64,000 nucleotides of DNA, taken from Chloroflexia bacterium (GTDB lineage Bacteria > Chloroflexota > Chloroflexia > DTKN01). Below the pieces are notes generated by a model. It made no database searches. It was not told where the DNA came from and saw only the letters and a program-made list of their open reading frames with translations. Position 1 is the stretch's first letter. Every line of letters begins with the position of its first letter. Where the stretch lies: contig DAOUAK010000038.1 in the NCBI GenBank assembly GCA_034433695.1, positions 2,758 to 66,757 of the forward strand, written 5' to 3'. A program made the position numbers and the translations under genes. Below are positions 5,351-49,776 of this stretch, in pieces.

Positions 5351-6259
5351 ATGAGACTCCGTTTCCTTCAGAAATCGTACAGCCTGCGCAACAGCGGCAT
5401 CAATCCATCCGGCTTCCACCCCAGCCAGATTCAGTTCTACATCATCCTGGCTCCGGTGGTGGCCTTTATGCTCCTGCCGATCATCTTTATTATCTCCAAC
5501 GCCTTCAAGCCGCCCGAGGAACTCTTCGCCTACCCGCCGCGCTTCTTCGTCGTCAACCCAACGCTGAAGAACTTTACCGACCTTTTTACCCTGATGACCG
5601 TCTCCGAGGTGCCGGTCAGCCGCTACCTGTTCAACAGCATTGTCCTCACGGCCATCTCCATAGGGGCTTCCATTGCCATCTCCAGCACGGCGGCCTATGC
5701 CCTCTCCAAGAAGCGCTTCAGGCTCAAGCAGACGCTCTTTGCCGTCAACACCGTGGCGCTGATGTTCGTGCCCGTTGCCGTTACCATCCCGCGCTTCCTC
5801 ATCATCGCCCGTCTGGGACTGATCGATACCTTCTGGGTACACATCCTCCCTGCACTGGCCATGCCGGTCGGACTCTTCCTGCTCAAGCAATTTATCGACA
5901 CCATCCCGGACGAGGTCATCGAGGCAGCCCAGATCGACGGTGCCTCCGACCTGCAGATCTACTGGCGCATCGTCCTGCCGCTGGTCAGACCGGCCCTGGC
6001 CACCATCGCCATCCTGACCTTCCAGGCCACCTGGAACAATGCCGATACCTCGGCCATGTATATCAACATCGAAAACCTCAAGACCTTCGCCTACTATCTC
6101 AGCACACTTTCGACGACAACCGCCGGGGCGAACGTGGTGGCCGGCCAGGGTATGGCCGCAGCGGCAGCACTGATCATGTTCGTGCCTAACCTGATCATGT
6201 TCCTCCTCCTGCAAAGTCAGGTCATGAGCACGATGTCGCATTCGGGGCTAAAGGGATGA
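5351..6259 (+). CDS. Carbohydrate ABC transporter permease (MalG/UgpE-like)
   Basis: Multi-TM protein with the conserved loop [16 protein letters not shown], which is EAA-motif-like. Confidence 0.85.
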
Positions 6260-8271
6260 AACGTCTGCCGCTCTTCCTCGTTCTGGTGCTCTTATTGCTC
6301 CTCCTGATTCCGGGCGTGCCCGCGCAGGCCCTGACCCCTTATACGACCTGGGCGCTGGGGCCGGGCGGCCGACTCTACCTGACACAGGACGCCTACGTTC
6401 CCGTTTCGGAGGTGCCCCTGCCCTTGTCCGGTGCGGAGGATATGTTCATCACCGCAGAAGGAGACCTTTACATCGCCGATACGGGCAACGGCCGCATCCT
6501 GCGCCTGGACAGCAACTGGCAGATCGTGGCAACCTACGGCGAAGGGCTGCTCCGAAAGCCGAACGGCCTCTTTGTGGACCCCGAGGGAACGATGTACATC
6601 GCCGACGCCGGAAACAACTCCATCGTCATCCTCGACCATGACGGCACACTGGCCACGAGTTTTGGCCGGCCGAACGAGGCGCTCTTTGGCCGCAGGAACG
6701 AGTTCCTGCCTCGCAAAATCGCCGTAGACACGCGCCAGAACCTCTATATCGTCAGCGAGGGTTCGACCGATGGCCTGGTGATGATGACCCGAGACGGACG
6801 CTTCATCGGCTACTTTGGCGCGAACCCGGCCACGATGTCCTTGAAGATGCTCTTGCAGCGCCTGTTCCTGACGAGGGAGCAACTGGCGCAATTCATCAAG
6901 AACGAGGCGGCCTCGCCCTCCAATGTAGCCATCGACAGCGAAGGGATGATCCTTACCGTAACCTCGGGCACGGCCCGCGAGCGCAGCATCCGCCGTTTCA
7001 CCGTCGCCGGCCACAATATCTTCCCCGAAATCTACGGCTCGACGACCTTTCGCGACCTTCATGCCAGTCCGAACGGCCTGGTCACAGCGGTAGATGCCGA
7101 GGGACGAATCTACGAGTACGATCGGAAAGGAATGCTCCTCTTTGTCTTCGGGGCCCAGGACAAAGGGGAGCAACGCCTGGGACTGCTCCGCAACCCCACC
7201 GCCATCGAACGCTATCAGGACTGCATCTATGTGCTGGACAAGGACAAGAACGCCATCGTCGTCTACCGGGAAACGAGGTTTGCCCGTCTGGTCCATGACG
7301 GTGTGCGGCTGTATGTGGAGGGCTTTTACAGCGAGGCACGACCTTACTTCGAGGAGGTGCTGCGCTATAACGGCTTATTCATCATGGCCTACCAGGCCAT
7401 CGCCGATGCGTACTTCAAGGAGGGCGACTATATCCGCGCCCTGACCTATTATCGCTATGCCGAAGACCGCCGGGGCTATTCCGAAGCCTTCTGGGAACTC
7501 CGCAACGTCGTCCTGCAACAATACCTGGCAACCGGCCTCCTCGGGCTACTCGGCCTCCTCGTTGCCCAGGGGGCCCTCAAACGCCTCGACCGCCGCTACG
7601 CCTGCTTCGCTCCGGTACGGCGTGGACTGGCCTGGCTGTGCCGCCGCAAACTCGTGGACGACTTTCTTTTCCTCTTTCGCTTCATCAAACACCCCGCCGA
7701 TAGTTTCTATTACATCAAGGCCAAACAGCGCGGCAGCCTGGCGTTTGCCCTCCTGATCTATCTGTGGGTGGTCATCGTGCGGGTGCTGACCCCTTACCTG
7801 ACCGGATTTATCTTCAATCCCTACGCCAACCCGGGAGAAATCCGCGCCGAAAACGAGGTCGTCTACACCCTCCTCTTCCTTCTGCTCTGGAATGCGGCGA
7901 ACTACCTGGTCTCGACCATCAGTGAGGGTGAGGGCCGCGTCCGGGACGTCGTCATCGGCAGCGCCTACGCGCTCTCCCCTTACGCCATTTTTGCGCTGCC
8001 AATCGCCCTCCTCTCCAACGTCCTGAGCGCCAACGAGGCCTTTTTTTACACCTTTTCCATGAACCTGGTATGGGCCTGGACCGGGCTGATGCTTTTCCTG
8101 ATGGCCAAGGAAATCCATAACTACTCCTTCGGCGAAACGGTCCGTAACGTCCTGCTGACCCTCTTCACGATGGCTATGGCGCTGCTGGCCGGCTATATCC
8201 TGTATGTGCTGGCCTCCCAGTTCTATGACTTTATCTCGGCCATCTGGCGGGAGGCACAGTTACGTGGTTAA
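6256..8271 (+). CDS. Membrane protein with N-terminal signal, NHL repeats, TPR-like region and C-terminal Yip1-like multi-TM domain
   Basis: NHL-like repeats [14 protein letters not shown] and [17 protein letters not shown]-like segment ([22 protein letters not shown]). C-terminal ~250 aa with 5-6 hydrophobic helices. ATGA overlap with the upstream permease. Confidence 0.6.
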
Positions 8272-41980: not shown

Positions 41981-43291
41981 ATGGCCCAGAACGGGGTTCT
42001 TCTGGAATTGCGCAACATCCGCCAGGTCTACGGACGCGGCCCTCGTGCCATCGTCGCCGTGGAGGGGGTTAATCTAACGGTGCGGCGGGGCGAGTTCGTA
42101 GCCCTGCTGGGACCTTCCGGCTGCGGAAAAAGCACCCTCCTGCGCATCATCGCCGGCCTGAACGTGCCTACGGAAGGGGAGGTGCTCTACCACGGCCGGC
42201 CGTTGCGGGGAGTCAACCCTCATGCTACCATCGTCTTCCAGACCTTTGCCCTTTTCCCCTGGCTGACGGTGCTCGAAAACGTCGAGGTGGCCCTCCAGGC
42301 CCGGGGCATCCCCTTGCCCGAGCGCCGGGAGCGGGCCCTGGCCCTCCTGGACAAGGTTGGTCTGGATGGCTTTGAAAACGCCTATCCCCGAGAACTTTCG
42401 GGGGGGATGCGTCAGAAGGTGGGTTTTGCCCGGGCCATGGCCGTCGAGCCGGAACTTTTGTGCCTGGACGAACCGTTTTCTGCCCTGGATGTGCTTAGCG
42501 CCGATGCCCTGCGGGGCGAACTCGTCGAACTGTGGACCGGAGGCCAGATTCCCACCCAGGCCATCATTCTGGTTACCCACAACATCGAGGAGGCCGTCTT
42601 CCTGGCCGACCGCATCGTGGTGATGGAGACGCGACCGGGGCGCATCGCCGCCGAGGTGGTGGTCGGTCTCCCCCATCCCCGCCAGCGCAAGGGAGAGGAT
42701 TTCCTGACCACCGTGGATCGGGTCTATGCGGCGGTGGCCGGCCAGACCCAGCCGCCGGCCGTGGAACTGGGCACGGCCCCCGGCGAGCCAGGCCGGACGC
42801 GGGCCCTGCCCCCGGCCTCCGTCAGTGCCCTCTCCGGGCTGATCGAGCACCTGGACGAAGAGGTGGGCAACCGGGAAGACCTCTACCGCCTGGCCGACGA
42901 CCTGCGCATGGAGATCGATGAACTCTTGCCGGTGGTGGAGGCCGGGGAACTGCTCAATTTCCTCCGGGTGGACCAGGGCGATGTCATCTTGACGCCGCTG
43001 GGAGAGACCTTCGCCGAGGCCAGCATCCTGGCCCGTAAGGAAATCTTTGCCTCCCGTGCCCGCCGCATCCCGCTCATCCGCTGGCTCCTGAAGGGGCTGC
43101 GGGCCGCCCCGGAGGGCCGGGTGCCGCGCCGGGTCTTCCAGGATGTCCTGGAGTGGGAGTTTACCCCGGAGGAGGCGAAGGTACAGATGGATCAGGCCAT
43201 CGCCTGGGGGCGCTACGGCGAACTCTTCGGCTACGACGACGACCGGGACCTGCTCTACCTGGAGACGAACGGCTCGGGATCGGCCGCCTGA
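41981..43291 (+). CDS. ABC transporter ATP-binding protein (NitT/TauT-type) with ~180-aa C-terminal AAA-associated extension
   Basis: Walker [10 protein letters not shown], signature LSGGMRQKV, Walker [13 protein letters not shown]. Extra C-terminal domain follows [12 protein letters not shown]. Confidence 0.85.
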
Positions 43292-43301
43292 TTCCCCGGA
43301 A

Positions 43302-43802
43302 TTATTGCCCACAATAGGGGCAGACCGTCCAGGTCAGGTCCATCAATCGGCCGCAGGACAGACACTTTTTCCGAAGCGGGGTATGGCAATGGGGGCAGAG
43401 GATAAAGTCCGGTTCCACCCCCCGCTGGCAGGTGGGACAGAGGGGACGCTCCTCGATATCCTGCATGATGTATTCTCTCTCCAGGGCACGGGCGTAGCCC
43501 TCGGCCAGCGTCTCCCGGGGGCGGAACAGGAGGTAAAGCCAGTAACCGGGGAGAAAGAGAAGGAGCACCACCAAGGTGGCCAGGAGTTGCGCCGGCAGAC
43601 TCTCGCTGCGGGCACGGACATCCTGATAGGTCCAGACCACCAGGCCCAACCACACAACGGCCAGATAAATGCCCAGGACATAGCCAACGATCTCCAGGAT
43701 GGGCAAAGCCCGGGCCAGGAAAAGTTGGATCTCGGGGGGAAGGAACGACATTGTCGTCGTTTCGGTAACGGTTTGGGCCAGATGCAAACCCCAGGGTTCC
43801 AT
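43302..43802 (-). CDS. Membrane protein with C-terminal double zinc-ribbon
   Basis: Start chosen at MEPWGL with GAAGGAGG RBS, because the longer ORF overlaps darA. Two TM helices. C-terminal CPTCQRG...CPHCHTPL...CLSCGRL...CPYCGQ. Confidence 0.5.
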   Translation of the reverse strand: MEPWGLHLAQTVTETTTMSFLPPEIQLFLARALPILEIVGYVLGIYLAVVWLGLVVWTYQDVRARSESLPAQLLATLVVLLLFLPGYWLYLLFRPRETLAEGYARALEREYIMQDIEERPLCPTCQRGVEPDFILCPHCHTPLRKKCLSCGRLMDLTWTVCPYCGQ

Positions 43803-43881
43803 CAAAGAAAGCCTCCTTCGTCCATCGCAAATTCGCACCGAAATCGGCGGAAAATCATCCCGGCTTGAAACGGACAACGTT

Positions 43882-44232
43882 CTACCGATCGACGGTATCC
43901 AGTTGTCGCCATTCTTCGATCGGCAGGATAAAGACATGGGCGCCGCCGACCTGCACCTCCACCGGAGCGGGAGGGAAGAGCCCGCCGGTTTCCAGAAGCG
44001 GGGAGACCGGGCTCAGGTAACGGGTGCGGGCGTGGCAGTGGGTCCGAATCACCTCCAGGGCCTTTTCCACGGCCCCTTCGTCCCCGGCCAGGAGGAGGGT
44101 ATCGTTGGCTTCCATCAGAAAGCCGCCGATGCTGGCCACGTGGGTGAAGTTGAACCCGGCCTCTCCCAGTGCCCGGCCCAGTTCTTCCAAATCCCGTCGC
44201 TGGATAATGGCGATCAGGAGTTTCAAGGCCAC
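43882..44232 (-). CDS. darA: PII-like c-di-AMP receptor, DarA/PstA (DUF970) family
   Basis: [20 protein letters not shown]...[19 protein letters not shown]...[18 protein letters not shown] closely parallels Bacillus DarA (KLIVAIVQDQD...ATTGGFLRAGNTTFLCG...PVEVEVGGATVFVMPV). GTG start overlapping the upstream stop. Confidence 0.7.
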
Positions 44233-45896
44233 GGTTCCCCCCCTTCTTCCCGGCGAAAGATGCGCACTCGACGTTTGGGTTCCTGCCCCTGGCTGGCCGA
44301 AGCCAGGCGGTAGCGCTCGATCATCTGGTGTTGCAGCCGGCGGATGTAGGCGTTCTGGGGTGCCAGTTCCACCTCTTCCCGTTCGCCGCTGAGCACCTGC
44401 CGGATGGCCTCCTCGGTCTCCTGCAAGGCCCGGAGAACGTCTCCTTCGGTGGGGCTGCGGCGTTCGGAGAGTAGGTGCAGGCAGTTCTCCATCTGCACGG
44501 CGGTGTTGGCCTTGAGGACATAGATGGGGACGCCGGCCTCCTCGGCCTCGCGCAACCGGCGGGGAGACTGGCGATAATATCCCTGGAGGGTGATCACGGC
44601 CTGGGCCTGGGCCAGTTCATCCACTAGGACGACCGGCATCTGGAGCAGGCGGGCAGCCCGGGCCAGGCGCTTCCGGTTGACTCCGAACGGGTAGATGCGC
44701 AGCGGCGTATCGGGGGTAGGCGAGGGGGATTCTTTTTCCTCCTTTACGGCCGGCGGATATCCTTCTTTTCGAGGCAAAACCCGACGGCCGGCCTCGGCGT
44801 GGCGTCTTTCCAGACCGCCGCCGAAGTAATTCCGCTCGATCCAGCGTTCGATCTGGCCGTCCTCGCGGCGGTGGCGAATCTCCGCCGGGGCCGGAAAGCC
44901 GCGCAGGAGCGAATCGACCACCTCGGCCACGTTGCGATGGACGGCCACCGTGTCCCAGTCCTGAATCTCCACCACGATGTCAAAGGTCGGCGGGGCCTTG
45001 CGTTCCAGGATGGTCTTCTGGGTTCCCCGCCGACGGGCCTCCTCATCGCCCAGCGTGACCGGCTGGATGCCCCCCAAAAGGTCGGAAAGGGTTGGGTTGA
45101 GCATCAGGTTCTCCAGGGTATTGCCGTGGGCCGTGGCCACCAGTTGCACGCCCCGCTCGGCGATGGTGCGGGCCGCCGCCGCCTCCAGTTCGGTGCCGAT
45201 CTCGTCAATGATGATGACCTCGGGCATATGGTTTTCCACCGCCTCGATCATCACCGCGTGCTGACGGTCGGGGCTGGGCACCTGCATCCGGCGGGCCCGG
45301 CCGATGGCCGGGTGAGGGATGTCACCGTCGCCGCCGATCTCGTTGGAGGTATCCACAATGATGACCCGCTTGCGAAAGTCGTCGGCCAGCACGCGGGCCA
45401 CCTCGCGGAGCATGGTCGTCTTGCCCACTCCCGGTCGGCCCAGGAGGAGGATGCTCTGTCCCGTCTCGATGAGGTCCTGGATGACGGCGATCGTCCCGTA
45501 GACGGCCCGTCCCACCCGGCAGGTCAGGCCGATAATGCGGCCGTCCCGGCTGCGGATGGCGGAGATGCGGTGCAGGGTCCGGGCGATACCGGCACGGTTG
45601 TCGCCGCTGAAGAGGCTGATGCGGGCCAGGACGTAATCCAGGTCCTCCTGGGTGACCTCCCGTTCGCTCAGGATGACTTCGCGGCCCGGGAAACGGGCCT
45701 CCGGCGGCCGGCCCAGGTCCAGCACGATCTCCAGGAGTTCGCTCAGTTCAGGCTCCCGACGCAGGGGGTCGTGGAGGCGGGGAGGGATGGCCTCTAGAAG
45801 GGCATCCAGGTCATCGGTCACCCGTTTCTGAACCACCGGAAGTTCCGGTGGATCGGAAGGTATCCTTTCTCTTCGAATGGTTACCGGAATCTTCAT
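44223..45896 (-). CDS. R3H-domain AAA ATPase (Ycf45/SpoIIIAA-like)
   Basis: Walker [10 protein letters not shown], Walker B VIIIDEIG and C-terminal R3H-like segment. Real start at MKIPVTI. The 230-codon Pro/Gly-rich upstream extension of the ORF is rejected. Confidence 0.75.
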
Positions 45897-46843
45897 ATTT
45901 TCCCCAAAGACGGCGTGCTCGGCGCCGTTCCAAGAGGCGCTCCGGCCCGACGGCCGGGAAGCGCCTGACGTTGTTCGACCCGCACGGCCAGGTTTTTGGC
46001 CAGGAGGATTTGTTCGGCATAGAGACGAAAGCCCAGACGGCGGGCCACTTCCAGAAGTTCGCCCTGGTAAGAGCGCAGGACCAGGTAGACGGGGGGAGAA
46101 GCCCGTCGCAACCCCCAGACGAGCACATCTGGAGCACCTTGACGAAAGGCCGGCTCCAGAAGCACTTCCAGACGGGTGCCCCCTGTTCCCCGGGCGCAAC
46201 GCAGGTACGCCCGGACGCGGCCCTGTTCCGGCCAGATCCAGGCCTCCTCCCCCGGCCCGGCCCGCCAAAAGGCTGGATCGCGGCCCTCCACCTGTTGAAC
46301 GATGGGGGGAGTCAGGCCGGCATATAGCCCCTGCACCGCTGCCAGCATGTCGGGCTGGAGGGGTTGGGGTCTCGAGCGCGGGTGGACTTCTGGTCGGCTG
46401 CCCTCCTCCCTGAGCAGGATCATCTCCTGGGCAAAGGGGGCAAACCCGGCCCGCTGGAAGAGTTCCAGGTACTCCTCCTCCGGCAGACGGGCCAGCAGGC
46501 GCACTTGTCCCCGCCGGCCGGCCTCCATCCCCAGGCCGTGCAAGAGTTCTTCCCAGGCGTCCTCGACCGCCTCCTCGGCGGTCCACAGCCCCAGGTAGCC
46601 GACCTCCCAGGCCCCTTTTTGCCGGCCTTCCCGGGCCTGGGCGCAGGCCAGAACCTTTCCTCCTTCCCGGCAGAGCAGGGTGTACGACGGCTTCCCCAGG
46701 TGGAGGCAGGAACTGAGCAGGCCGCGCCAGGGATGGTAGGAAAAGACCCGATGCTGCACCAGGTCCAGGGATAAGGATACCTGGGGGGGAATGCCCAGCG
46801 TCACCAGGTCCAGCAAGGTGGCCGGCCGAATCTGCCGTTCCAT
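45893..46843 (-). CDS. Hypothetical protein
   Basis: 316-aa ORF in operon position between pdxT and the R3H ATPase, with start overlapping the pdxT stop. No recognised motif. Could be a GC-driven artefact in part. Confidence 0.4.
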
Positions 46844-46847
46844 CCTC

Positions 46848-47423
46848 CTACCCCGTCATCTCCAGAAAATAGCGGTGAAACCGCTCGTCTTCGGTCAGTT
46901 CGGGGTGAAAGGCCGTCCCCAGAAGTCGGCCTTGTTGCACGGCCACCACCCGTCCGTCCTCCAGGCGGGCCAGGACCTCCACCTCCGCTCCCCACTCCTG
47001 CACATAGGGGGCGCGGATGAAGACTCCCCGGAAGGGTGGCGGACCCAGCCGTTCCACCTCCAGGTCGGTTTCGAAACTATCCAACTGCCGGCCGAACCCG
47101 TTGCGCACCACGACGACATCCAGAAGGCCCAGGAGGGGCTGGTGGGGAACCCCACCCAGGGCCGCGCGGGCCAGGAGGATCAACCCGGCGCAGGTGCCCC
47201 AGATGGGTTTCCCCTCCCGGGCCAGGGAGAGGATGGCTTCGTCCAGGCGGTAGGCCACCGCCAATTTGCCGATGGTCGTGCTCTCCCCGCCCGGAAGGAT
47301 CAGGCCGTCCAGCCCCTCCAGGTGCTCCGGCAAACGGACTTCCCGGGTCTCTACCCCGATGCGGCGGAGCATGGCGATATGCTCCTGAAAATCTCCCTGA
47401 AGGGCCAGGACACCGATTCGCAT
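46848..47423 (-). CDS. pdxT: Pyridoxal 5'-phosphate synthase glutaminase subunit
   Basis: [12 protein letters not shown]...[11 protein letters not shown]...catalytic Cys in GTCAG. Class I glutamine amidotransferase. Confidence 0.9.
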
Positions 47424-47444
47424 ACCTTGCCTCCGTGCCGGCTT

Positions 47445-48332
47445 CTACCATCCCCGGCCGGCCAGCCGCTCCGTGGCCGGAATGGCGGCGATCTCCAGGC
47501 CGGGCATGGCCTCGCCCAAGCCCCGGGAGACCTCGGCGATGATGGCCGGGTCGCGGAAGTGGGTGGTGGCGGCGACTATGGCTTTGGCCCGGCGGAAGGG
47601 GTCGCTGCTCTTGAAGATGCCGGAGCCCACAAAGACGCCGTCCATGCCCAGTTGCATCATCAGGGCCGCGTCGGCCGGCGTGGCGATACCGCCGGCGGCG
47701 AAGTTGACCACGGGCAGCCGGCCGGTGCGGGCCACTTCCACCACGAGTTCGTAAGGCGCGCCCATCTCCTTGGCGGCGTGCATCAGTTCCTCCGGGGCCA
47801 TGCTTTGCAGCCGGCGAATTTCCCCCAGCACGGCCCGGGCATGGCGCACCGCCTCGACGATGTTGCCGGTGCCGGCCTCACCCTTGGTGCGAATCATGGC
47901 TGCCCCCTCGGCAATCCGGCGCAACGCCTCCCCCAGGTTGCGGCAACCGCAGACAAAGGGCACCCGGAAGGCGTGTTTGTCAATGTGATGCTCTTCGTCG
48001 GCGGGGGTGAGGACCTCGCTTTCATCAATGTAATCCACCCCCAGCGCCTCCAGCACCTGGGCCTCGACAAAGTGACCGATGCGGCATTTGGCCATCACCG
48101 GGATGCTGACGGCATCCATGATCTTCAGGATGAGTTCGGGGTCGCTCATCCGGGCCACGCCCCCGTGGGCGCGGATATCGGCCGGCACCCGCTCCAGGGC
48201 CATGACCGCCACCGCACCGGCCTCCTCGGCGATTCGGGCGTGTTCCGGCGTGACCACGTCCATAATCACGCCCCCCTTGAGCATCTGGGCCAGCCCGACC
48301 TTGGTCCTCCAGGTAGATTTTTCCATCATCAT
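47445..48332 (-). CDS. pdxS: Pyridoxal 5'-phosphate synthase lyase subunit
   Basis: Highly conserved PdxS sequence (GGVIMDVV...[17 protein letters not shown]...). Confidence 0.95.
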
Positions 48333-48404
48333 TCACCTCCTCGCGCACCGTTGCGCTTGACCCTGACATCCCTGTCGTGCCGTCCGGCTCTACCGGACAT
48401 TTCT

Positions 48405-48433
48405 ATTGTACTACACTCCCATCCGACCTGCAA
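48405..48433 (-). promoter_or_regulatory. Putative promoter TTGCAG-N17-TACAAT for pdxST
   Basis: Reverse complement of ctgcaa(48428-33)...attgta(48405-10). Divergent from the rpsA promoter. Confidence 0.4.
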
Positions 48434-48438
48434 CTGGC

Positions 48439-48467
48439 TTGCATTCTGGCCGGAAATCCCGTATAAT
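48439..48467 (+). promoter_or_regulatory. Putative promoter TTGCAT-N17-TATAAT for rpsA
   Basis: ttgcat tctggccggaaatcccg tataat. Followed by leader hairpin GGACCTTTCC-accc-GGAAAGGGTCC (48479..48503) and GAGGAG RBS. Confidence 0.45.
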
Positions 48468-48531
48468 AAGAAGTAGCAGGACCTTTCCACCCGGAAAGGG
48501 TCCTGAATCCGATGACCTTGAGGAGCGGGGT

Positions 48532-49776
48532 ATGGTCGAAAGCACCTATACCGAGGGAACTCAACCGACCCAAGAGGGCTGCCGTCCACCGGAAGTTGTT
48601 GCCCGTGGAGAAAGTGTGAGCGCCGGAGCCGTTTCCCCCGGGTCCGGCAGCGAGGAGGCCTGGCTTCGGATGCTGGAAGACCCCAACTATACGTACTCTG
48701 CCATGAACTATGGGGATGTCATCGAAGGCACGGTGATGGAGATCGGCCGGGACGAAATCCTGGTGGACATCGGGACCAAGTCCGAAGGCGTGGTTCCCAG
48801 CCGCGAGTTCCGCAAGGCGGCCCAGGCCGGAGAACTGGAGGGCTTGAAGGTCGGCTCCCCCGTCCTGGTCTTTGTCCTGCGGGCCGAAGATGAGGAAGGC
48901 CGGGCCCTTCTCTCCATCGACCGGGCGCGCCATGAAAAGAGCTGGCGCTGGCTGGAGGAAATTTACCGGAAGGGCGAGTTGATCGAGGCCACCGTAGACG
49001 GCTATAACAAAGGGGGAGTGCTGGTCAACTTGCGCGGCATACGGGGCTTTGTCCCTATTTCCCAGATCGCCGGGATGGGAAACCGGCGGAACCCTTCCCC
49101 GGAGGTGATGGCCCAGATGGTGGGCCAGACCCTCCCGCTGAAGGTGATCGAACTCAACCGCCGACGCAACCGGCTGGTCCTTTCCCAGCGCCAGGCCCTC
49201 CAGGAGCACCGGGAGAGCCGCAAGGAGGAACTGCTGGAAACGCTGGAGGTGGGCAAAATCTACCACGGCGTGGTCAGCAGCATCTGTAACTTTGGCGTCT
49301 TTGTGGACCTGGGTGGCGCCGACGGCCTGGTTCACCTCTCGGAACTCTCCTGGAAACGGGTGGATGACCCCGCCGAGGTCGTCCAGGTCGGCCAGGAAGT
49401 GGATGTCTACGTCCTGGGGGTGGATCGCGAGCGCAAGCGCATTGCCCTGAGTATGCGGCGTGCCCAGCCGGAACCTTGGGAAACGATTGCCGAACGGTAT
49501 CAACTGGGGCAGTTGGTCCAGGGCAAAGTGACTCAACTGGCTTCTTTCGGGGCCTTTGTCCAGATCGAGGAGGGGATCGAGGGGCTGGTGCACCTTTCCG
49601 AACTTTCCGATACCCCGGTGTCCCATCCTCGTGAGGTGGTCCAGGAGGGGGATGTGGTCACGCTGCGGGTGATCCGGATCGATCCGGCCCACCGCCGCAT
49701 CGGCCTGAGCCTGCGCCGGGCCCAGCATGATATGGGAGACCAAGTCGCGGAGACGGGGTCGGAGCAGGCCGGATAG
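48532..49776 (+). CDS. rpsA: 30S ribosomal protein S1 (four S1 domains)
   Basis: Repeated S1 OB-fold motifs (GDVIEGTV..., GELIEATVDG..., KIYHGVVSSICNFGVFVDLGG...GLVHLSELSW, GQLVQGKVTQLASFGAFVQIEEGIEGLVHLSELS). Confidence 0.85.
   Translation: MVESTYTEGTQPTQEGCRPPEVVARGESVSAGAVSPGSGSEEAWLRMLEDPNYTYSAMNYGDVIEGTVMEIGRDEILVDIGTKSEGVVPSREFRKAAQAGELEGLKVGSPVLVFVLRAEDEEGRALLSIDRARHEKSWRWLEEIYRKGELIEATVDGYNKGGVLVNLRGIRGFVPISQIAGMGNRRNPSPEVMAQMVGQTLPLKVIELNRRRNRLVLSQRQALQEHRESRKEELLETLEVGKIYHGVVSSICNFGVFVDLGGADGLVHLSELSWKRVDDPAEVVQVGQEVDVYVLGVDRERKRIALSMRRAQPEPWETIAERYQLGQLVQGKVTQLASFGAFVQIEEGIEGLVHLSELSDTPVSHPREVVQEGDVVTLRVIRIDPAHRRIGLSLRRAQHDMGDQVAETGSEQAG

Follow-up and report, generated by a model that had tools for sequence, protein, structure and literature searches.

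Organization of the locus

We analysed a 64,000-nucleotide (nt) stretch of a Chloroflexia genome (assembly GCA_034433695.1, contig DAOUAK010000038.1, positions 2,758 to 66,757 of the forward strand; hereafter the window), in which a small gene encodes a 116-amino-acid (aa) protein related to DarA and PstA, PII-like receptors of cyclic di-adenosine monophosphate (c-di-AMP). This darA-like gene lies between the gene for a P-loop ATPase with an R3H domain and the gene for a membrane protein with a double zinc ribbon (DZR). An earlier annotation made from the letters of the window (the sequence-only reading) had presented these three genes as a cluster, and all of them were found on the minus strand at the positions it gave; the cluster begins further upstream, with pdxS, pdxT and orf316, which that reading had missed. 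The minus-strand run comprises six co-directional genes in the order pdxS, pdxT, orf316, ATPase gene, darA and DZR gene (Table 1). The darA gene adds a divergent member to a known family, and the operon represents a variation, confined to one lineage, on the known arrangement of darA with the thymidylate kinase gene tmk; the locus offers a lead drawn from gene context and does not amount to a new signalling module.

The genes of the run are closely packed. pdxS and pdxT are separated by 21 nt and pdxT and orf316 by 4 nt, and the TGA stop codon of orf316 overlaps the ATG of the ATPase gene as ATGA. As the sequence-only reading had pointed out, the GTG start codon of darA overlaps the TGA stop codon of the ATPase gene, the overlap spanning 10 nt (GTGGCCTTGA). 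An alternative start of darA, a TTG two codons downstream, would overlap as TTGA. Because a close relative of the window locus (L002), in which the overlap is otherwise the same, has CTG at the position of this TTG, GTG is the likelier start. The tight spacing from pdxT through darA, together with the 21 nt after pdxS, fits co-transcription and coupled translation. A scan of positions 43000-48800 detected no site resembling a promoter, terminator-like sites were about as frequent as expected by chance, and the result was uninformative on the operon boundaries; neither kind of site was detected in the spacer between darA and the DZR gene.

Table 1. Features of the minus-strand gene cluster and its downstream flank (positions are those of the window)
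Feature	Position	Strand	Basis
pdxS, subunit of pyridoxal 5'-phosphate (PLP) synthase; first gene of the co-directional cluster	47445..48332	-	Open reading frame (ORF); matches an ORF of locus L001 at E=4e-142, annotated PF01680 SOR_SNZ
pdxT, glutaminase subunit of PLP synthase	46848..47423	-	ORF; matches SNO-family (PF01174) neighbours of the ATPase
orf316, conserved partner of the ATPase, without Pfam family	45893..46843	-	Stop codon overlaps ATPase start; homologues upstream of the ATPase
SpoIIIAA/Ycf45-type P-loop ATPase with phosphotyrosine phosphatase (PTPase)-like and C-terminal R3H domains, 557 aa	44223..45896	-	Pfam matches
Stop/start overlap of the ATPase gene and darA, GTGGCCTTGA	44232-44223	-	Read in the sequence
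darA-like gene for a DarA/PstA-family PII-like protein, 116 aa, divergent subfamily	43882..44232	-	PF06153
Spacer between darA and the DZR gene, 79 nt, with Shine-Dalgarno sequence GAAGGAGG	43803..43881	-	Sequence
DZR membrane protein; last gene of the cluster	43302..43802	-	PF12773, hydropathy, alignment
ABC-transporter ATPase, convergent with the end of the cluster	41981-43291	+	

The darA-like gene encodes a member of the PstA/DarA family

The 116-aa protein matched PF06153 (CdAMP_rec) over profile positions 1-108 of 109, with E=3e-30 and 105 bits against a gathering score of 27; of the two profiles with which the sequence-only reading was to be checked, this was one, and the other, R3H, was matched by the ATPase as described below. 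Gap-free alignments were obtained with PstA of Listeria monocytogenes, DarA of Bacillus subtilis and PstA of Staphylococcus aureus (E 3e-21 to 1e-19), to which the window protein is equal in length and 37-41% identical. An AlphaFold2 model of the protein reached a predicted local distance difference test (pLDDT) score of 74 and a predicted template modelling (pTM) score of 0.68, the loops being of low confidence. When this model was searched with Foldseek, the ten best matches were headed by 4rww, 3m05, 4d3h and 4rle, with GlnK and PII proteins coming next. The window protein truly belongs to the PstA/DarA branch of the PII superfamily.

With the canonical PII proteins GlnB and GlnK, whose oligomeric targets include AmtB and NAGK, the window protein shares the predicted ferredoxin-like core, and these proteins are its next-best fold matches. 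For both, the expected mode of action is that a trimer docks on a symmetric partner in a ligand-dependent manner (PMC12435418). The identity to canonical PII proteins is, however, only ~20%, and motifs of the ATP/2-oxoglutarate type are absent: as described for PstA, there is neither a Walker-A-like B-loop nor a C-loop.

tmk and darA form part of a conserved operon in Chloroflexota and Dormibacterota

An alignment of 18 close DarA homologues plus the window sequence was used to scan one genome per GTDB species, and the six-frame ORFs of the 80 darA loci most similar to the query were searched with the window proteins, tmk being found by a tmk hidden Markov model (HMM). In 54 of the 57 loci that belong neither to Bacillota nor to Deinococcota, the ATPase gene precedes darA on the same strand, so that the gene order noticed in the window proved to be conserved. 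These 54 loci come from Chloroflexia, Roseiflexus, Anaerolineae, Thermomicrobiales/Sphaerobacter, ten Dormibacterota and two metagenome-assembled genomes (MAGs) labelled Actinomycetes. Of the three exceptions, two are truncated by contig ends and the third is a second darA copy in one MAG (L045). No ATPase gene was found near darA in any of the 22 Bacillota loci or in the single Deinococcota locus.

In most of the linked loci, the ATPase gene and darA are ~600-700 nt apart, and the gap is occupied by tmk (PF02223, E 1e-41 to 1e-56). tmk intervenes between the two genes in 50 of the 54 ATPase-linked loci, and it stands immediately upstream of darA in 72 of all 80 loci, including each of the 22 from Bacillota. 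The sequence-only reading had contrasted the window with Bacillus, in which darA was said to sit with tmk and other genes instead; this contrast does not hold, because the Chloroflexota arrangement contains the tmk-darA pair of Firmicutes. It was reported earlier that pstA is 'invariably' in an operon with the thymidylate kinase gene in six Firmicutes (PMC4475381). The linkage is thus not peculiar to Firmicutes but extends to Chloroflexota and Dormibacterota, where the pair belongs to a single conserved operon, following a motor-type R3H ATPase gene and often preceding a DZR gene. A limited literature search, on DarA with thymidylate kinase and on c-di-AMP in Chloroflexi, turned up no paper on this operon, nor any on c-di-AMP in Chloroflexota.

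Only four of the ATPase-linked loci (L002-L005) have no tmk between the two genes, and these constitute the clade of the window, with DarA proteins 69-90% identical. The tmk HMM detected no tmk anywhere in the 64-kb window, nor at these four loci. Throughout this clade the ATPase/darA junction is tight, being either an overlap or, in L003-L005, a TGA and an ATG separated by 5 nt. The parsimonious reading is that the direct junction of the ATPase gene and darA is derived, by lineage-specific loss of tmk. Compared with the Firmicute tmk-darA (pstA) operon, darA of the window is likewise a promoter-distal small gene in a co-directional cluster, but tmk is missing, pdxST-orfX-ATPase (orfX standing for orf316 and its homologues) lies upstream and the gene for the DZR membrane protein downstream. 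Among the Chloroflexota, DarA of the window clade is 44-50% identical to that of the other classes, against 47-59% among those other classes. Accelerated evolution of DarA after the loss of tmk was considered and set aside, as the effect is modest and too weak to build on, and the conservation of the ATPase equals that seen elsewhere.

In 19 loci the gene immediately downstream of darA is the DZR gene; these are all four loci of the window clade, nine Roseiflexus-like loci and all six from Thermomicrobiales. In half of the Anaerolineae loci it was found 5.5-6.6 kb upstream of darA on the same strand, and in none of the ten Dormibacterota loci was it detected near darA.

The locus was also viewed from the side of the ATPase, in nine distinct contexts of ATPase homologues 62-66% identical to that of the window. 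In all nine, pdxT and an orf316 homologue were found upstream of the ATPase gene, the three genes being consecutive in eight; downstream, tmk was found in two contexts, darA in one and a CTP synthase gene in one. The orf316 homologues (about 283-327 aa) stand directly upstream of the ATPase gene in every one of these contexts and in most darA loci, which makes orf316 look like the most constant partner of the ATPase. Between classes, orfX proteins are 24-30% identical and the ATPases 52-62%. The 316-aa protein of the window matched no Pfam family; its homologue in L083 scored 21.7 bits on PF00583 (cutoff 20.7) and two others ~14.7 bits, distant homologues thus being weakly GNAT-like. pdxT-orfX-ATPase is the stable core of the operon, to which tmk-darA is a facultative downstream addition, and pdxS stands upstream of the core in many loci. 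The ATPase does not depend on DarA, nor does DarA of Firmicutes depend on the ATPase; where both exist, they are almost always encoded in one operon.

The R3H ATPase and the DZR membrane protein

The ATPase comprises three Pfam domains, PF19568 (Spore_III_AA, residues 127-274; 47.7 bits, cutoff 27), PF25516 (PTPase-like, residues 399-474) and PF01424 (R3H, residues 490-548; 49.7 bits, cutoff 26.8). The residues of the Walker motifs (including E232) as well as R519 and H523 of the R-x3-H motif are invariant in 39 sequences. Although no match was obtained when the sequence was searched against the PDB, a fold search showed that the ATPase resembles secretion-superfamily (SpoIIIAA/PilT-like) and RecA-type ATPases, the former being hexameric secretion-type motors. 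The protein has a secretion-superfamily motor fold with its Walker and R3H motifs intact. A classical AAA+ ATPase is not supported, and the 'AAA' of the sequence-only reading was a loose label, since the fold matches are secretion-type and RecA-type ATPases. The sporulation protein SpoIIIAA itself is ruled out by a score of 70.8 bits on the equivalog TIGR02858, the cutoff of which is 281.

With SpoIIIAA, Ycf45 (Synechocystis slr0692), GspE, PilT and VirB11, the ATPase of the window has PF19568 and Walker motifs A and B in common. It differs from SpoIIIAA in falling far below the equivalog cutoff, in having no partners of the SpoIIIA-type membrane complex nearby, and in carrying the PTPase-like domain, which has no Cys-X5-Arg, and the R3H domain. 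The Ycf45 family is conserved in Chloroflexota as well as in cyanobacteria and plastids. Its members presumably have the same three-domain layout with a C-terminal R3H domain, and the label 'Ycf45-like' is based on this presumed architecture. As late as 2026, Ycf45 appeared among the hypothetical proteins (PMC13139465).

The PF25516 domain (positions 44475-44702, minus strand) is annotated as a phosphotyrosine phosphatase. Its sole Cys lies in the sequence ENCLHLL, and G405 and R410 are invariant in the loop after the first strand. Because the Cys-X5-Arg signature is absent, the domain is probably not a cysteine phosphatase.

The DZR ORF spans positions 43302-43937, and translation most likely begins at the ATG at 43802, which is preceded by the Shine-Dalgarno sequence GAAGGAGG and yields a protein of 166 aa. 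PF12773 was matched with E=8e-12 by the full ORF and with E=6e-12 by the part at 43302-43802 (45.9 bits, cutoff 27.3), and two 19-residue windows exceed a Kyte-Doolittle value of 1.6, corresponding to two predicted transmembrane helices. The zinc-ribbon membrane protein of the sequence-only reading is thus borne out, and its gene is co-directional with darA; the gene is, however, not overlapped with darA, from which it is separated by a 79-nt gap. The C-terminal CPxC/CPxC/CxxC/CPYC pairs are conserved in 11 homologues. The alignment also revealed a conserved WT(Y/F)xDIxxRS ... G..(Y/H)L.LRPxxTL motif in the membrane part, between and after the helices. In its WTxxDxxxR...LRP motif this part resembles PLDc_N, the small N-terminal membrane domain of phospholipase D/cardiolipin-synthase-type proteins, but Pfam gave no such match at E up to 5, and this identity is not claimed.

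The predicted c-di-AMP pocket

In the complex of L. monocytogenes PstA (LmPstA) with c-di-AMP, the ligand is contacted by the main chain of G47, the G26-A27 peptide, T97, F99, N41, T28, the C-terminal His, the main chain of G94 and the 34-GGFL-37 turn; F36 stacks on the adenine, and both F36A and N41A reduce binding (PMC4475381). T28, G34-G-F-L37, N41, G94 and F99 (reference numbering) are identical in the window protein and in its whole clade. Moreover, F36, N41, T28, GGFL and G94 are invariant in every group sampled, as is F99 except for an Ile in some Dormibacterota. We rate binding of c-di-AMP by the window protein as likely. With DarA (B. subtilis YaaQ, 4RLE) and PstA (S. aureus 4D3G/4WK1; L. 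monocytogenes 4RWW) the window protein has in common PF06153, length and predicted fold, T28, the GGFL turn, N41, G94, F99 and a long B-loop. In the B-loop region (67-92), 17 of the 26 positions are invariant within the window clade.

The window protein also departs from these references. It is known from sequence and its host is one of the Chloroflexota rather than a Firmicute, its B-loop is of the Chloroflexota type, its score on the DarA equivalog model is below cutoff, and its T-loop sequence differs, as do T97 (His), A27 (Phe) and G47 (Ala). At positions 26, 27, 47, 97 and 107/108, the window has N, F, A, H and R/Q where G/R, A, G, T and H/Q are found in the references. At positions neighbouring the conserved contacts, the clade stands apart from all other sampled groups, with A27 replaced by F, K/R29 by H, K/R38 by M/L, G40 by A, T/V/A42 by D, G47 by A and T97 by H.

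Evolution of the operon and possible roles of DarA

We consider it probable that the window carries the distal end of a conserved housekeeping-type operon from which tmk was lost in this lineage, and that its DarA acts as a c-di-AMP-binding trimer. The ancestral order across Chloroflexota and Dormibacterota would have been pdxS-pdxT-orfX-ATPase-tmk-darA-(DZR), and the loss of tmk from the locus in the window lineage would have left darA flush against the ATPase gene. The DarA-family protein is predicted to form a trimer that would bind c-di-AMP in its inter-subunit clefts via T28, G34-G-F-L37, N41, G94 and F99, and the signal may be relayed through protein-protein contact by the B-loop, which is long and strongly conserved. 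What DarA/PstA do in the cell, and with which partners, was called unknown in a 2023 review (PMC10117814), and a study of 2025 names no partner (PMC12435418). Gene context provides a short list of candidates, which the linkage evidence would rank in the order Tmk (the ancestral, near-universal neighbour, encoded outside the window), the ATPase and the DZR protein. The window clade is a natural variant in which tmk is gone and the other links are kept. The sole evidence that separates the candidates is that darA stayed with the ATPase gene and the DZR gene after tmk had left, which is a single event. A functional link between DarA and the ATPase is possible.

Several observations weigh against the reading that we consider probable. 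The 'strong' DarA similarity claimed by the sequence-only reading holds for the Pfam family PF06153 but not for the NCBIfam DarA equivalog (NF058593), on which the window protein scored 97.8 bits, under the cutoff of 140. B. subtilis DarA, included as a control, scored 176, and homologues from Roseiflexus, Anaerolineae, Thermomicrobiales, Dormibacterota and Deinococcota scored 118-137; the window clade has the lowest score among the sampled groups, and its darA is the most divergent one sampled. As all tested non-Firmicute homologues score under 140, the cutoff appears to be tuned to Firmicutes. Within the pocket, the window clade has changes at or beside the contacts (R/G26 to S/N, A27 to F, G47 to A and T97 to H), and the T-loop of the window departs from GGFL(K/R)xGNxT. 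A regular-expression search for the diadenylate cyclase motif (GxRHRxA) in six frames of the 64-kb window found none, the rest of the genome being outside this search, and no Rfam family was matched at gathering thresholds anywhere in the window, and hence no c-di-AMP (ydaO-type) riboswitch. The surveyed loci were chosen for similarity to the query and are no random sample, and co-transcription is inferred from gene spacing only.

It is quite possible, if short of probable, that the synteny involves no direct tie, in which case darA would merely occupy the end of a constitutive housekeeping operon, and its targets would lie elsewhere, e.g., in ion/osmolyte homeostasis or central metabolism, as the genetics of Firmicutes suggest. 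The operon indeed mixes a PLP synthase, a GNAT-like protein, an ATPase and a dTMP kinase, and tmk and darA are each dispensable from it. In Firmicutes, the genetics of darA/pstA point to the essentiality of c-di-AMP in rich medium and not to nucleotide metabolism, the function of the protein being called unknown (PMC10117814). Nevertheless, the adjacency of tmk and darA is kept across phyla (72/80 loci), and gene order kept at such depth usually reflects selection for co-expression, for which the tight or overlapping junctions also argue.

An alternative concerning the ligand is that the PII-like receptor of the window clade no longer binds c-di-AMP, or binds not only c-di-AMP, the change having accompanied the uncoupling from tmk. 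This would account for the clade-invariant substitutions in the pocket and T-loop (H31, E41, A42 and D44, as well as S/N28, F29, A49 and H99, in window numbering), for the lowest equivalog score of all sampled groups, and for the identity to DarA of other Chloroflexota (44-50%, against 47-59% among those across classes). However, all of the experimentally supported or hydrogen-bonding side chains (F36, N41 and T28) and the GGFL backbone turn are kept. Of the positions that changed, R26 is dispensable, LmPstA having a Gly there, and G47 makes its contact through the main chain (PMC4475381). The extra divergence is also modest, and we regard a changed ligand as unlikely.

The sequence-only reading had proposed that the pairing of darA with the ATPase and DZR genes represents an output module for c-di-AMP. 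In a dedicated module of this kind, DarA would be the c-di-AMP sensor, and its trimer would dock on the ring-forming R3H ATPase and/or the DZR protein and switch their activity with the c-di-AMP level. darA and the ATPase gene do share an operon in 54 of 55 informative loci, despite identities of only 52-62% for the ATPase and 24-30% for orfX, and after the departure of tmk darA was kept with the ATPase gene, which it overlaps, and the DZR gene. The fold of the ATPase is that of hexameric secretion-type motors, and C3-symmetric partners have been suggested for PII-type trimers (PMC12435418). The picture of a trimer seated on the ATPase ring is our own inference. The B-loop is strongly conserved, and the DZR gene is next to darA in three lineages and, in half of the Anaerolineae loci, no more than about 6 kb away. 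Nevertheless, the pairing is not obligate. The ATPase gene occurs without darA in eight of the nine contexts, in which pdxT-orfX-ATPase remains the stable core, and darA occurs without the ATPase gene in all 22 Bacillota loci, in one Deinococcota genome and in the second copy at L045. Furthermore, tmk stands between the two genes in 50 of 54 loci, darA was retained upon the loss of tmk in one evolutionary event only, and Dormibacterota have no DZR gene nearby (0/10). The cluster also holds pdxS, pdxT and the GNAT-like gene; therefore, membership of the operon alone does not make an output module. Such a module is, in our view, quite unlikely.

Lower still we place the specific proposal that the DarA-family trimer regulates the Ycf45/SpoIIIAA-type R3H ATPase in a c-di-AMP-dependent manner, perhaps with the DZR protein as tether or relay. 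If this were true, the ATPase would be the first direct target of a PstA/DarA protein, and the Ycf45 family would gain a first functional handle. c-di-AMP would then be tied to a nucleic-acid-handling motor encoded beside genes for pyrimidine-nucleotide enzymes (tmk, and pyrG in one locus).

Additional loci

Some loci differ from the common arrangement. Among the contexts L001 and L082-L090, some Dehalococcoidia-like loci have pdxS divergent or absent while pdxT is retained. On one Chloroflexota contig (L090, positions 5502-7151, plus strand), the CTP synthase gene pyrG follows the ATPase gene in place of tmk; this is a single case, and pyrG and tmk both encode pyrimidine-nucleotide enzymes. 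The Anaerolineae MAG R89_281 has two darA genes, one of which (L015) is in the usual ATPase-tmk-darA position. The other (L045:7004-7333, plus strand) has neither tmk nor the ATPase gene and stands beside genes for an LVIVD-repeat protein and a DUF433 protein. darA of the Deinococcota locus (L066) likewise has neither gene and is found beside a histidine kinase, a response regulator and a methyltransferase; the surroundings of both L045 and L066 are uninformative. Finally, two MAGs labelled uncultured Actinomycetes (L033 and L053) carry ATPase-tmk-darA of the Chloroflexota type, which could be due to an error of binning or classification or to real spread beyond Chloroflexota and Dormibacterota.

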